Positions 2,757 to 39,791 of a stretch of DNA of 64,000 nt are shown piece after piece; position 1 is the first letter of the stretch; the number at the start of each line of letters is the position of its first letter. This stretch comes from Promethearchaeota archaeon. GTDB lineage: Archaea > Asgardarchaeota > Thorarchaeia > Thorarchaeales > Thorarchaeaceae. The stretch spans positions 71,915 to 135,914 of the forward strand of contig JALVPN010000040.1 in NCBI GenBank assembly GCA_027031765.1, read 5' to 3'. Made by a program: the position numbers and the translations under genes. The notes below the pieces were generated by a model. It had not been told where the DNA came from and ran no database searches. It saw only the letters and a list, made by a program, of their open reading frames with translations.

Positions 2757-3496
2757 ACGTCGGGTTCAAACAGTCGGAGCCTTTTCACAAGCTCCTCGAC
2801 CGTTGGAACCTGTGATATACACAGCGGGAGGTGCATGCCATCCGCGATGCGAACGGCCAGCGGATCCAGTTCTTTGACCCCCTGTAGAATGACAACAGCA
2901 GGCTTCACCGCCGGCGAGGTGCCAATTTGACTTGCTTTTATTGCCACCATTGGAGAACGCCCCGTTGAAACGTTGGTGAGGACTGCAGCTCTCTGGGTAG
3001 TGCCACCGTAGAGCCTGAGCAGCTGGTGGGGTGTGAGGCTCACAATTGCACTTACGCTGTCCAGTGCAGTATATCCGTATACGTCACGTCCCAGCAGCGC
3101 ACCATGTGTGAGCACTTTGCAGTCTAGGAACTGTACCAGCTGGCGGGCCGGGACTGGCACCCCAAACTCACGGCTGTCAAGGATGGCATCTGATGCAATC
3201 TCAGGCGAGATTAGTTTCTCAAGGGCCAGTGCAATACGCCCACCGTTTGCGGCATCCATTTCAAGCAGACCATCAACAAACCTCTTGATTGTGTCAACAC
3301 GAGGGGACTTCCTGCGTCCGCTCTCATAGTCACTTATGACGGACGGGGACACACCCAGATAGTCTGCAAGTGCTTTCTGTGACACTTGGAAGCGTTCGCG
3401 CCACTGACGCATGACTGAGCCCGGATCGTTCTCAGCGAGACATATCTCGCCAGCAATCGTTTCGGCAAGCCGTTGCAGTGACTCCCGACGGCTCAT
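2753..3496 (-). CDS. XRE-family HTH transcriptional regulator with C-terminal domain (ORF-track start at 3676 trimmed to internal Met)
   Basis: HTH_3 signature SQKALADYLGVSPSVISDYESGRR; the N-terminal 60 aa of the track ORF are low-complexity. Confidence 0.5.
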   Translation of the reverse strand: MSRRESLQRLAETIAGEICLAENDPGSVMRQWRERFQVSQKALADYLGVSPSVISDYESGRRKSPRVDTIKRFVDGLLEMDAANGGRIALALEKLISPEIASDAILDSREFGVPVPARQLVQFLDCKVLTHGALLGRDVYGYTALDSVSAIVSLTPHQLLRLYGGTTQRAAVLTNVSTGRSPMVAIKASQIGTSPAVKPAVVILQGVKELDPLAVRIADGMHLPLCISQVPTVEELVKRLRLFEPDV

Positions 3497-6847: not shown

Positions 6848-7408
6848 TTGAAGACGGTCAGGGCATTTCTCAGCGTCGACATAAAGGACAGGCCGCTCGT
6901 GGTGCATATAACACACATCCAGCAACAGCTGGACACCACCTCAGCAAGCATGAAACTGGTCGAGCCGGAGAACCTGCACTTTACATGGAGGTTTTTTGGA
7001 GAGACAGCCATCACGAAGATTGACCAGATGCGCCAGACGCTTCAAAATCTTGTATTCTCAGCGTTCACGATAGAAGTGGGGGGAGTGTCTGCATTCCCAA
7101 GCCCCTCACGCCCCCGGGTGGTCTGGGTGGGGGTGAAACACAACAACGACATGATGGTCAGGCTCAAACAACAGACGGACAGTCTGCTCGCCCGACTCGG
7201 CATCCCGCCGGAGAAACGGTTCGTCCCACATGCAACAATCGCAAGAATTCGACGCATTCATGACAGTCGTGCCCTTGGCGAGAACATTGGAGCACTGAGG
7301 GATGTTACCGTAGGCACTATGACTGTCGACGCAATCACCATGAAACAGAGTACACTGACACCATCGGGCCCGATATACAAGACACTGTGGGAAATACGTG
7401 CGAGGTAG
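6848..7408 (+). CDS. ligT: RNA 2',3'-cyclic phosphodiesterase / 2'-5' RNA ligase LigT (2H phosphoesterase)
   Basis: Two H-x-T-x motifs (LHFTWRF and PHATIARI); N-terminus VRAFLSVDI typical of LigT. Confidence 0.7.
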   Translation: MKTVRAFLSVDIKDRPLVVHITHIQQQLDTTSASMKLVEPENLHFTWRFFGETAITKIDQMRQTLQNLVFSAFTIEVGGVSAFPSPSRPRVVWVGVKHNNDMMVRLKQQTDSLLARLGIPPEKRFVPHATIARIRRIHDSRALGENIGALRDVTVGTMTVDAITMKQSTLTPSGPIYKTLWEIRAR

Positions 7409-7409
7409 G

Positions 7410-7546
7410 TGGTGGGCCGGGGGAGACTTGTCCCGTCGGGGGAGCCCCAACGACGTTTGAACTCCCGATCTCTTGCATTCTGTTGCTGGAGGGCCTTTGC
7501 CCCAGCCACCCCAAGCAAGCATCATACCAAGCTAGACTACCGACCC
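7410..7546 (-). tRNA. tRNA-Pro(GGG) with two introns: 31 nt at 37/38 (7478..7508) and 29 nt in the T-loop at 59/60 (7427..7455); CCA encoded
   Basis: Hand-folded on minus strand: acceptor GGGTCGG/CCGGCCC, D-arm GTCT AGCTTGGTA TGAT, anticodon stem CTTGC/GCAAG, loop TTGGGG-T, T-stem GGGAG/CTCCC with TTCAAA-[intron]-T. Confidence 0.65.
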
Positions 7547-7842
7547 ATCTACCTTGCACGGTGGCAGCCCATGCTTTCATGGGGCCTAGTCTAAGGACGG
7601 ACGCACCCAAAATAAAGCTTGCCAAAGAGTAGAAGGAGGAGCCCAAGGGGGAGGGAGGGGCGTTGGTGTTGGAGGAGGAGCAGAACCAAGCGCCACCACT
7701 CTCATTTACGGACAACAGCAGGTCGTGTCTGCTGATGCAACCTGCAACACTGCCTACGGAAACACTGTTGCAATGGCGTGCCACGCATGGAGCATGCACC
7801 TCACGACGCACAGTGGTAGGACTGGGCTCTCGGCTTGTGGCG

Positions 7843-7960: not shown

Positions 7961-8920
7961 GTGGGAGATGATGTATTGAACGACCTGAGTGACACGCTAC
8001 AGAACATCAAGATGATTACAGGAGTTGAGAATGTGGTCCTGGTGCAGAAGGACGGGGTGCCTGTCGCAAGTGCCGGGGTATGGTTTAGCAAGGAAGAGGT
8101 CTTTGCCGTTGCATCGTCCGCTTCTGCAATCTTTGGGGTCGCCCGTCTGATCCACAACGACTTCAAATACCTCCTGATGGAATCGGACACGTCAAAGGTG
8201 TTCTTGGCAGCGCTGCCCAATGACCCCGACTACTTCCTGACAATCACGACGGCCCCACGTGTGAACCTTGCTGCACTGTTCATTGAAATGCGCAGAAACC
8301 TCTCCCACCTGTCCTTTCTCCTACGACAACAGGCTGAAGGCCGCGCACCACCTCTCAGATCGTATAGCCTCGACGAGACCCAGAGGGTGCTCCGGGGGTT
8401 TGCCGTTTCAGAAGGTGACGGGACATCGTATGTGCTCTCACGCACAGTTGTTTCACTTGACCGCAGTCATGCTGTTGCTCTCCGGTCACTGCTCCGACAG
8501 ATCAGCGACAGCATCCCACGTGTGAGTTCGGTATTCCTATCACTCACCGGAGGCGTCCGGATTTCGCTGGACGGGTTCACTGATGACCGCCTTGCGGCCA
8601 TGTCATTTGCGCTGCACGATGCATCGGAGAGAGTAATCCGTACCCTCCGCAACAGTTCTCTGGCGACTGTTCTCTGTGAAACCGACTCGGTGAGACACTT
8701 TACATACTCAGTTCCAAACGGCGTCTTCAGCCTCTGGGTGGAGAAGTCGAGTCAGAAGCTTGGCTTGATGCGACTGCTCCTGAAACATTTCATCACGGAG
8801 ATGCGGCGAGTCCTGGCATCGGCATCGGTTGTCAGACCATCCATCCCGGCAGACCTGAGGGAACTGCTGCTGTCAGGGATTTCCGAAGAGTCAATACTGA
8901 TGACGAGGCGAGAACAATGA
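7961..8920 (+). CDS. Tandem Roadblock/LC7 (MglB-like) domain protein (start uncertain: GTG 7961 or ATG 8012; track start 7835 overlaps the TATA box)
   Basis: N-terminal IKMITGVENVVLVQKDGVPVASAG...AVASSASAIFGVARLI and C-terminal VSSVFLSLTGGVRISLDGFTDDRLAAMSFALHDASERV both fit the Roadblock fold pattern. Confidence 0.55.
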   Translation: MGDDVLNDLSDTLQNIKMITGVENVVLVQKDGVPVASAGVWFSKEEVFAVASSASAIFGVARLIHNDFKYLLMESDTSKVFLAALPNDPDYFLTITTAPRVNLAALFIEMRRNLSHLSFLLRQQAEGRAPPLRSYSLDETQRVLRGFAVSEGDGTSYVLSRTVVSLDRSHAVALRSLLRQISDSIPRVSSVFLSLTGGVRISLDGFTDDRLAAMSFALHDASERVIRTLRNSSLATVLCETDSVRHFTYSVPNGVFSLWVEKSSQKLGLMRLLLKHFITEMRRVLASASVVRPSIPADLRELLLSGISEESILMTRREQ

Positions 8921-17557: not shown

Positions 17558-17664
17558 GGGCTCGTGGCGCAGCCAGGTAGCGCAGCAGGCTTTTAACCTG
17601 ATGGCCGCGGGTTCAAAGAAGCGCGAGAGTTCCTCGCGGTTGGGGTATCCCGCCGAGCCCGCCA
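17558..17664 (+). tRNA. tRNA-Lys(TTT) with 30-nt intron in T-loop at 59/60 (17618..17647); CCA encoded
   Basis: Acceptor GGGCTCG/CGAGCCC, D-arm GCGC AGCCAGGTA GCGC, anticodon loop CTTTTAA (27:43 G-A mismatch), T-stem GCGGG/CCCGC split by intron containing CGCGAG..CTCGCG hairpin. Confidence 0.6.
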
Positions 17665-32919: not shown

Positions 32920-33020
32920 GCCGGGGTATCCAAGTGGCTACGGAGACGGTCTCGAAACGCATCGTCGAGTGAACCGTTGGGGCAATCCCCGCGTGGGTTC
33001 GAATCCCTCCCCCGGCGCCA
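32920..33020 (+). tRNA. tRNA-Ser(CGA), class II, 15-nt intron at 37/38 (32957..32971); CCA encoded
   Basis: Acceptor GCCGGGG/CCCCGGC, 3-bp D-stem, anticodon stem ACGGT/ACCGT, long variable arm TGGGGCAATCCCC hairpin, T-loop TTCGAAT. Confidence 0.7.
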
Positions 33021-38354: not shown

Positions 38355-39566
38355 TCAGTCATCCATCCTTCGGGCCGCTGCTTCAAGAGCACTTACGAGG
38401 GGGAGCTGCTCCCCCGTAAGGAAGCTTATGCAGGCACCGCCCCCGGTGCTAATGTGGGTTATGGAAGACTCAAGCCCCACCCTCCGTGCAAGAACCCCAA
38501 GATGGCCGCCACCTACGACTGTAACGCCGCCGCAGCTGGCGATTGCCTCCAGCACTCTGATAGAGCCATGTGCGAATGCCTCCCGTTCAAAACAGCCGAG
38601 GGGGCCATTGGCGAAGACGACGGCTGAACGTCCAATGATTTCCTCAAATGCCTCAAGTGTCTTGGGCCCAACATCAAGGACTGGACGCCCCTGAAGAGCA
38701 TCAAGAGAGCAATCGACCCGTCTGCCGTCCTGTTCAATCGCTCCATCTTGAGGGAGCACGATGATATCGGAGAATTCGGATAGCAAACGACATGCAACAT
38801 CAAGAACCGAGTCAGAACCGCTGATTGCAGATACATACCTGGGTGGGACTTGTCCGTTGGCTGCGAGGAAGAGAGTTGCGACAAGGCCGCCAAGCAGTGC
38901 ATGGTCGACCCGTTCAGAGCGCAGGAGTTTCTCCAGTGTCTTGACCTTGTCTTGGACTTTGCTCCCGCCGAGTACGAGAGTCCAGGGGTGTTTCGTGGTT
39001 GCTGTCACCTCCGTTAGGATGCGTATCTCCTTTTCAAGGAGCCGACCAGCCACGGATGGTAACACAACCGTGAAACCAACAATAGAGGGCTGGGATCGGT
39101 GCGCAGCGCCGAATGCATCATTGACGAACAGGTCAAAGAAATGGTACAGTTCCTGTACTATCGGTTCCTGAGCGACCACCTCAGGGGGTTCCCGCTTCAG
39201 CTCTCCCGGAAAGAAGCGGACATTCTCTAGGACGACTATTTGGCCAACCTCAACTCTTTGAATGGCCCGTTTTGCGCTCTCGCCGAAAATGTCGTCAACA
39301 AAGGACGCATTGAACCCCATCTCTCGTAGAAGACGGACGTGCGACTCCAAAGACACAAAGTCACTGGATTCGGGACGCCCCTGGTGTGCCATTAGGACAA
39401 CGGCGCTCTCGGATAGTTCCTCAAGTGTAGGACAGACAGCCCTAATGCGGCTGTCATCGAGGATTTCATGAGTGTCAGGATTTAGTGAGGAGTTGAGGTC
39501 TGCGCGCACAAGAACCCTTTTGCCGGCAACCTCGACATCGTCGAGTGTCTTGAATGGTAAGCGCAA
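38355..39566 (-). CDS. pgk: Phosphoglycerate kinase (TTG start; ORF-track extension to 39701 overlaps tRNA-Met and is rejected)
   Basis: GKRVLVRADLN, VVLMAHQGRP, C-terminal GGG..ACISFLTGE motifs. Confidence 0.85.
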   Translation of the reverse strand: MRLPFKTLDDVEVAGKRVLVRADLNSSLNPDTHEILDDSRIRAVCPTLEELSESAVVLMAHQGRPESSDFVSLESHVRLLREMGFNASFVDDIFGESAKRAIQRVEVGQIVVLENVRFFPGELKREPPEVVAQEPIVQELYHFFDLFVNDAFGAAHRSQPSIVGFTVVLPSVAGRLLEKEIRILTEVTATTKHPWTLVLGGSKVQDKVKTLEKLLRSERVDHALLGGLVATLFLAANGQVPPRYVSAISGSDSVLDVACRLLSEFSDIIVLPQDGAIEQDGRRVDCSLDALQGRPVLDVGPKTLEAFEEIIGRSAVVFANGPLGCFEREAFAHGSIRVLEAIASCGGVTVVGGGHLGVLARRVGLESSITHISTGGGACISFLTGEQLPLVSALEAAARRMDD

Positions 39567-39621: not shown

Positions 39622-39791
39622 TGGTGCCGCAGGAGGGCGACTCGGCCACTCCTCAAGACTCGGGGAGCAGCATTCGATCCCTCGACTTCGAGATTTCTCA
39701 TCTCCGGCCAGCCATTAATATGACCCCACGGGCAACCGGAACACCGGTCAGATTATGAGTCTCGCGCCCTACCAGGCTAGGCCACTGCGGC
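39622..39791 (-). tRNA. tRNA-Met(CAT), probably elongator, with two introns: 58 nt at 37/38 (39696..39753) and 35 nt in T-loop at 59/60 (39639..39673); CCA encoded
   Basis: Acceptor GCCGCAG/CTGCGGC, D-arm GCCT AGCCTGGTA GGGC, anticodon stem CGAGA/TCTCG, loop CTCATA-A, T-stem GAGGG/CCCTC. Confidence 0.55.

Follow-up and report, generated by a model that had tools for sequence, protein, structure and literature searches.

Predicted bulge-helix-bulge introns in the anticodon and T loops of tRNA-Pro(GGG) and tRNA-Met(CAT) genes of a Thorarchaeota-like archaeon

Interrupted tRNA-Pro(GGG) and tRNA-Met(CAT) genes

The 64-kb stretch of contig JALVPN010000040.1 analysed here (hereafter the window, meaning the whole stretch) carries two minus-strand loci, 7546..7410 (137 nt) and 39791..39622 (170 nt), that read as genes for tRNA-Pro(GGG) and tRNA-Met(CAT), each interrupted by two introns, one at the canonical position 37/38 in the anticodon loop and one in the T loop (Table 1). 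Excision of 31 and 29 nt from the Pro gene, and of 59 and 34 nt from the Met gene, leaves in both cases a cloverleaf of 77 nt, counting the encoded CCA. Given the exon-only sequences, ARAGORN identifies a 77-nt tRNA-Pro(ggg) and a 77-nt tRNA-Met(cat), and the minimum-free-energy folds of the spliced molecules are cloverleaf-like, showing acceptor, anticodon and T arms. The original prediction, which was made from the sequence alone, had proposed two introns per gene and a 76-77-nt cloverleaf after their removal; both proposals hold, given the ARAGORN result on the spliced sequences and the splice sites and orthologues described below.

With the inserts in place, neither gene is called by the standard tools. 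ARAGORN on the intact window reports two uninterrupted tRNAs, neither of them Pro nor Met, and Rfam at its gathering threshold finds seven tRNAs in the window, with the Pro and Met genes not among them. In a permissive Rfam scan of the unspliced sequences, the Pro gene gives no tRNA match and the Met gene a partial match of 13.8 bits (the gathering threshold of RF00005 is 29 bits); the same permissive scan over the whole window yields no additional partial tRNA matches. On the other hand, the Rfam gathering filters, when run over multiple sequences, missed even intronless Pro genes at two related loci (L075 4688-4761 and L059 1009-1082; loci are given as L numbers throughout). When a short stretch is searched, the Rfam tRNA model, matched over its whole length (model positions 1-71), gives the L075 gene 54.6 bits, so negatives from the fast filter are unreliable for this tRNA-Pro. 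Because standard tRNA finders miss such genes, the genomes of this group seem to be without tRNA-Pro(GGG), elongator tRNA-Met and others.

Table 1. Features of the two interrupted tRNA loci and of the adjacent protein-coding genes
Feature	Coordinates	Strand	Remarks
tRNA-Pro exon 1	7509..7546	-	positions 1-37, anticodon GGG; 38 nt; apart from G26, matches exactly the 5' exon in 65 distinct Thorarchaeota genes
tRNA-Pro intron 1	7478..7508	-	31 nt, canonical 37/38, relaxed BHB
tRNA-Pro exon 2	7457..7477	-	positions 38-58
tRNA-Pro intron 2	7428..7456	-	29 nt, T-loop 58/59, full hBHBh' motif
tRNA-Pro exon 3	7410..7427	-	positions 59-73, CCA encoded at 7410-7412
tRNA-Met exon 1	39754..39791	-	5' exon common to 16 orthologues
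tRNA-Met intron 1	39695..39753	-	59 nt, canonical 37/38, full hBHBh'; holds the invariant GGGGTCAT core
tRNA-Met exon 2	39673..39694	-	positions 38-59
tRNA-Met intron 2	39639..39672	-	34 nt, T-loop 59/60, near-canonical BHB
tRNA-Met exon 3	39622..39638	-	positions 60-73, CCA encoded at 39622-39624
ligT (RNA 2',3'-cyclic phosphodiesterase)	6848..7408	+	Pfam LigT_PEase / 2_5_RNA_ligase2; convergent with tRNA-Pro; stop TAG 7406-7408
pgk	38355-39566	-	TTG start 39564..39566

Splice-site motifs and orthologous genes

The junctions were searched for a motif of the bulge-helix-bulge (BHB) type by scoring all cut-site pairs for a 4-bp central helix (H) between two 3-nt bulges, cut after the second nucleotide of each bulge, with outer helices h and h'. 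All four junction pairs present the hBHBh' motif or a relaxed variant of it (HBh' or hBH), three of them in good quality and the Pro 37/38 pair in relaxed form. Specifically, the Pro 58/59 motif has all 4 of 4 H pairs, an h of 4 and an h' of 5, and ranks first among the candidates in the entire Pro precursor, while the Met 37/38 motif, with H 4/4 (CTCA:TGAG), h 5 and h' 3, is the joint top candidate of the Met precursor. The Met 59/60 motif retains 3 of 4 H pairs (an A54.G mismatch interrupts the helix), with an h of 5 formed by the T stem and an h' of 8. At Pro 37/38, H likewise has 3 of 4 pairs, h has 5 bp, and h' is the 5-bp helix GCTGG/CCAGC offset by a G.A mismatch; with this mismatch opening h' and a G36.A mismatch in H, the 5' splice site falls within an internal loop. 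The Pro 58/59 junction is fixed independently of the motif, because the spliced T arm, GGGAG TTCAAGT CTCCC, equals the unbroken T arm of one-intron orthologues such as L005, and the mature T loop TTCAAGT is the same as in orthologues that have no T-loop insert.

Orthologues of the Pro gene were collected by scanning one genome per GTDB species with a 5' exon pattern free of the G26 constraint, which recovered 70 loci with the same 5' exon, nearly all titled Thorarchaeota. The 65 distinct genes among them comprise one intronless type (L059, L075), 25 genes with the 37/38 intron only and 39 with both; of the latter, 30 have their second intron at 58/59 and the other 9 at 59/60, and a full 4-bp H is present in 38 of the 39. 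The BHB motif is retained in 64 intron-1 and 39 intron-2 orthologues, and across the 65 distinct genes the exons are near-invariant while the introns diverge. In particular, the intronless orthologue differs from the spliced product of the window gene at G26, which is particular to the window copy, and at one compensated T-stem pair only. A one-intron orthologue scores 47.9 bits on Rfam tRNA.

The intron helices covary. In the 65-gene alignment, 86% of the cells of the BHB and inner helices of Pro intron 1 are paired, compared with 30-51% in slid controls, and double (compensatory) changes occur at all 8 of the 8 h'/inner pairs. In the 30 genes with a 58/59 intron, 90% of the cells are paired (41-63% in slid controls), H pairs without exception, and 5 h'/inner pairs are compensatory, as in CGTCG/CGACG, CGAT/ATCG and CAACC/GGTTG. 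All 58/59 introns lie within GGGAG/CTCCC T arms, which allow a shifted outer helix made of A52:U60, G51:C61, G50:U62 and G49:C63, whereas GGGCG/CGCCC T arms are unable to form this shifted helix and carry 59/60 introns only. The link between T-arm sequence and intron placement is suggestive, and it is confounded by phylogeny.

One clade of two-intron Pro genes (L007, L008, L015, L028, L036, L048, L060, L061 and L074) does not encode CCA, its discriminator A being followed by CTTTCT or CTCTCT; CCA is encoded in every other orthologue, including the window copy.

For the Met gene, a metagenome scan with the 5' exon, together with loci derived through pgk, gave 16 further genes. Exon 1 is identical in all 16, and each has a canonical intron, 56-65 nt long, whose H is 4/4. 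Six of them have no further intron, and these one-intron genes score 51-53.4 bits on Rfam tRNA; six others have a 30-nt intron at 59/60, the window copy making seven genes with an intron there. L095 has an additional intron at 45/46, and L084, which is cut by a contig end, apparently has one at a similar site. The remaining two, L086 12128-12326 (+) and L087 638-836 (+), are three-intron genes: the canonical intron measures 65 nt, a second of 30 nt lies at 56/57, and the third is a 29-nt insert with its own BHB-like junctions. This insert begins right after the canonical intron's last nucleotide and is followed at once by exon 2, two introns thus abutting at a single site. The orthologue comparison called for originally, run here in Thorarchaeota, thus returns both regions as tRNA genes, with 0-2 introns for Pro and 1-3 for Met.

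The genomic position of both genes is conserved as well. The same Pro gene stands in convergent position at the loci of ligT homologues, with one intron in L005/L006 and two in L007/L008, and overall the ligT -> <- tRNA-Pro(GGG) convergence is found in 70 of 77 Thorarchaeota loci (L001-L078), regardless of whether the gene has 0, 1 or 2 introns. The Met gene is found just downstream of gatE, and pgk is often the next gene, in orthologous loci as in the window. This conserved ligT/gatE synteny fits single essential tRNA genes.

Taken together, it is very probable that both loci are functional genes for tRNA-Pro(GGG) and an elongator-type tRNA-Met(CAU), each with two protein-spliced BHB introns, in a Thorarchaeota-like Asgard host. 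Several observations pull in the other direction. A BHB of equal quality arises somewhere in 5-15% of shuffled precursors, and for this reason the motif alone is moderate evidence only. The Pro 37/38 motif is weaker than that of its orthologues, with a G36.A mismatch in H and a G.A pair starting h'. The mature T loop of tRNA-Met that follows from the BHB rule, ATCGAAG, has an atypical A54 and G60, the orthologues reading C or T at the first of these positions and T at the second. Additionally, the splicing of the Pro and Met precursors in vivo is deduced from sequence, and the genome is covered by the 64-kb window alone, which bears on the existence of second, uninterrupted Pro and Met copies. 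The argument therefore rests on the coincidence of the motif with the sites that restore a cloverleaf and on the comparative data, and the comparative data are decisive: identical exons, with 0, 1 or 2 introns, at the same sites.

The same set of facts (the unspliced genes failing in Rfam and ARAGORN, the relaxed BHB of Pro intron 1, the unusual A54 and G60 of the Met T loop, and data limited to one window of the genome) would also be seen if the loci were decaying tRNA pseudogenes with junk insertions that are never removed, functional copies residing elsewhere in the genome. We regard this as very improbable, since the 65 distinct Pro genes and the 16 Met orthologues keep near-invariant exons around diverging introns, the inserts are placed precisely where a BHB can form and show compensatory changes, CCA is encoded, and the genes occupy the same slot next to ligT or gatE whether they have 0, 1 or 2 introns.

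Decoding identity and long intron of tRNA-Met

The Met(CAT) gene is not an initiator: it has G1:C72 and an anticodon stem CGAGA/TCTCG, in place of the A1:U72 pair and the three consecutive G:C pairs in the anticodon stem that mark initiator tRNA-Met. It looks like an elongator tRNA-Met. A CAT anticodon is shared by archaeal tRNA-Ile2, in which C34 is converted to agmatidine to read AUA, ARAGORN cannot separate the two, and neither the window nor the fetched loci contain a second CAT tRNA for comparison; the gene could therefore be a tRNA-Ile2, which would leave its two-intron structure unaffected. We hold this to be quite unlikely, the non-initiator features (G1:C72 and a CGAGA/TCTCG stem that does not have three G:C pairs) standing against it. 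The identity elements of the two types lie in acceptor-stem pairs, which TiaS reads, and in the 31:39 pair. Archaeal elongator tRNA-Met typically has GCC...GTGGC and A31:U39 beside CUCAUAA, and tRNA-Ile2 typically a GGG start and G31:C39. The GCC..., GTGGC and A31:U39 (beside CUCAUAA) of the window gene presumably match the elongator type, which we take as a lead only.

The anticodon-loop intron of this gene had been described as 58 nt and unusually long. It is long, yet by the BHB rule it measures 59 nt, and because the orthologous introns span 56-65 nt, this length is conserved in the gene family and is no oddity of the window copy. In the Met anticodon-loop introns (16 distinct sequences; the window, L079 and L081-L095), an invariant GGGGTCA(T) core stands 3' of a covarying 5' hairpin, whereas the strand that pairs with it differs from lineage to lineage, as does the remainder of the intron. 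The introns of L083, L085 and L090-L092 carry a longer version of the core, CGGGGTCATAATCTCGG, which nearly duplicates the anticodon arm of the mature tRNA (CGAGACTCATAATCTCG). With this core, an alternative internal BHB that uses the same 3' site is possible.

The length of the Met intron and its invariant core could be taken as signs that the inserts are elements of another kind, namely a group I/II fragment, a small mobile element, or an intron bearing a box C/D guide as in tRNA-Trp. Many Met orthologues also read CTGATGAGG near the 3' end of the intron and ATCTGA at its 5' end, resembling box C/D words, and there is a weak SNORD93 match (14.3 bits, E = 5.8). On the other hand, no Rfam family reaches threshold on either region, no group I/II intron was found there, and inserts of 29-59 nt are far below the size of ribozyme introns, whose cores span hundreds of nucleotides; such an origin has a very small probability. 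A guide of the tRNA-Trp type would carry box C (RUGAUGA) near its 5' end and box D (CUGA) near its 3' end, together with internal D'/C' boxes and guides of 10-12 nt. A box C/D RNA within the Met intron was considered and rejected, as the words are in reversed order (CUGA 5', UGAUGAG 3'), the guide spacing is improper and the window copy reads AGATGAG. The conservation of TGAG in the C-like word is explained by its pairing with the anticodon-loop CTCA in the BHB.

With the inserts read as BHB introns, it is rather unlikely, in our view, that the long Met intron is more than a passive spacer, that is, that its core is functional or that it records intron growth by insertion at splice sites. Were it so, the core could be a functional element, e.g. 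the recognition site for a precursor-specific modification such as guide-directed 2'-O-methylation of C34 (Cm34); it could compete with the exon for the BHB strand GATGAG and so act as a switch; or it could belong to a stable circular intron RNA. Alternatively, it could be a record of how BHB introns grow, new sequence being inserted at a splice site already present, as the nested third intron of L086/L087 hints. The modification of an intron-containing precursor has a counterpart in Haloferax volcanii, where a box C/D guide acts on the intron-containing precursor of elongator tRNA-Met and methylates its C34 (Joardar et al. 2011, cited in PMC6601510). By analogy, both lineages have an elongator tRNA-Met with a conserved canonical intron, and such a modification may be a reason for intron retention. 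Unlike in H. volcanii, no guide RNA has been identified for the Thorarchaeota gene, whose intron is itself no C/D RNA, and the link to Cm34 is speculation.

Genomic context, related systems and significance

The Pro gene had been placed 1 nt from the stop codon of the convergent ligT gene, and this is the case, a single nucleotide separating the TAG that ends at 7408 from the tRNA end at 7410. LigT acts on RNA ends with a 2',3'-cyclic phosphate, the type of end that the splicing endonuclease EndA produces. At the other locus, the mechanically called pgk open reading frame (ORF) extends to an ATG at 39701, inside tRNA-Met, and with the tRNA gene overlooked the pgk ORF was over-extended. The claim that the Met gene lies within this 5' extension and that pgk starts at TTG 39566 is upheld by the deposited PGK protein (P0119, 100% identical), whose 403 amino acids (aa) correspond to that start, and by the lengths of PGK homologues, the 120 best listed being mostly 400-409 aa and nearly all covering 100% of the query. 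As mechanical ORFs span both regions (the pgk ORF from ATG 39701 and the minus-strand ORFs 7335-7811 and 7106-7525), one might argue that the regions are protein-coding and their likeness to tRNA coincidental. This is scarcely credible: the deposited annotation (with the ligT protein found verbatim on JAGSHO010000391, GCA_029855965.1) calls no gene over the tRNA-Pro region, between ligT and the next gene; the PGK homologues, of 400-407 aa at full coverage, agree with the TTG start; and the tRNA exons are conserved as nucleotides over dozens of species in which the flanking DNA is unalignable.

TATA-like words occur upstream of both tRNA genes, CTTTATTTT about 62 nt before tRNA-Pro and CCTTAATTAG about 55 nt before tRNA-Met. 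At L003/L004, the locus of the closest ligT homologue (60% identity), there is no tRNA-Pro after ligT. Two 13-nt direct copies of the Pro 3' end (CCGGCCCACCATT; 2086-2096 and 3116-3126, minus strand) instead flank a 304-aa ORF for a predicted membrane protein, which has no Pfam match; the arrangement resembles what an insertion or rearrangement at the 3' end of the tRNA would leave behind.

The nearest ligT homologues (49-60% identity) and PGK homologues (62-66%) are named Candidatus Thorarchaeota, which identifies the window, of 54% G+C, as Asgard (Thorarchaeota-like) and not as Thermoproteales. The comparison set suggested at the outset, Pyrobaculum, Thermofilum and Caldivirga, accordingly belongs to the wrong lineage. 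Past the promoter region of tRNA-Pro, the window also encodes a Roadblock/LC7-like protein (7976-8920, +; weak Pfam match) and, from about 9839 onward (+), a small GTPase of the Arf/Ras family. A gene pair of Roadblock/LC7 and small GTPase is typical of Asgard genomes.

Introns are recorded in 8 of the 10 tRNA genes of the window, those named with introns being Asp, Pro, Lys, Ser, Leu, Thr and Met, and those without being Arg(TCG) and Val(TAC). Besides Pro and Met, the tRNA-Lys(TTT) gene at 17558-17664 (+) has a T-loop intron; Rfam aligns the first 58 nt of this gene only (31.9 bits). It has a 30-nt insert after position 59, with a relaxed BHB (H 3/4, h 5, h' 2), and no anticodon-loop intron; the spliced product is 77 nt and is accepted by ARAGORN. 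Additionally, ARAGORN takes the region 32920-33020 (+) for an Arg(tcg) gene with an intron of 5 nt, but excision of 15 nt at 37/38 (H 4/4, h 6) yields an 86-nt class-II tRNA-Ser(CGA) instead.

For the Pro and Met genes, we propose that each would be transcribed as a single precursor, in which the junctions of each intron would fold into a BHB of two 3-nt bulges around a 4-bp helix. A putative EndA would cut after the second nucleotide of each bulge, independent of the mature tRNA body, and a putative RtcB-type ligase would join the three exons and probably circularise the introns. In the case of the 58/59 intron, the T stem may shift its register by one step (A52:U60, G51:C61, G50:U62, G49:C63) and so present a proper 3-nt bulge. 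To cut the T-loop sites and the relaxed site at Pro 37/38, an EndA of broad specificity would be needed, of the (alpha-beta)2 or epsilon2 type with a specificity loop. Asgard archaea including Thorarchaeota SMTZ1-83 are reported to have an (alpha-beta)2 EndA with an L1 loop and multi-intron tRNAs (Kaneta et al. 2018, PMC5829648).

Genes of this type are well known from Thermoproteales, for which PMC4090602 and PMC4033280 list multiple non-canonical BHB introns, including T-loop introns at 56/57 and 59/60, and a tRNA-Pro(UGG) of Pyrobaculum islandicum interrupted at 25/26, 37/38 and 56/57 (citing Sugahara et al. 2007/2008). The resemblance extends to short BHB or relaxed introns, to the combination of 37/38 with non-canonical sites including the T loop, to a maximum of three introns per gene and to concealment from standard tRNA finders, and the Thermoproteales genes are, according to the same papers, processed by a broad-specificity (alpha-beta)2 EndA. 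The host of the present genes, however, is Asgard (Thorarchaeota-like) and not a crenarchaeote. Moreover, in Thermoproteales similar intron sequences recur over many tRNAs, indicating transposition, whereas the T-loop introns of Pro, Met and Lys in the window have no evident mutual similarity in a comparison by eye. Position 58/59 could not be confirmed from the literature consulted as an already catalogued site of tRNA introns. BHB-dependent introns in the D and T arms, in two- and three-intron genes including elongator tRNA-Met, occur also in Cyanidioschyzon merolae and in cryptophyte nucleomorphs (PMC3728597; PMC4090602), which differ in belonging to the eukaryotic domain and in using a Sen-type endonuclease.

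Within the Asgard superphylum, PMC11291895 gives introns in 92-95% of the tRNA genes of Atabeyarchaeia and Freyarchaeia, more than half of them with several (Valentin-Alvarado et al. 2024), and the window resembles these lineages in its high share of intron-bearing genes (8 of 10) and in its many non-canonical and multiple introns. As far as their accessible text goes, PMC11291895 and PMC5829648 provide genome-level statistics for other lineages or for one Thorarchaeota metagenome-assembled genome, and that text does not describe the Pro(GGG) and Met genes, the polymorphism of 0, 1 or 2 introns over about 65 Thorarchaeota species, or the Met core.

Taken together, two-intron Pro and Met genes are an ordinary feature of this archaeal group, and multi-intron BHB tRNAs have already been described; none of these findings overturns current understanding. 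The Thorarchaeota set provides a clean natural series for the gain, loss and possible sliding of BHB introns, with 0-2 introns in Pro, 58/59 versus 59/60 placement, and 1-3 introns in Met, and this series falls in the archaeal lineage closest to eukaryotes.

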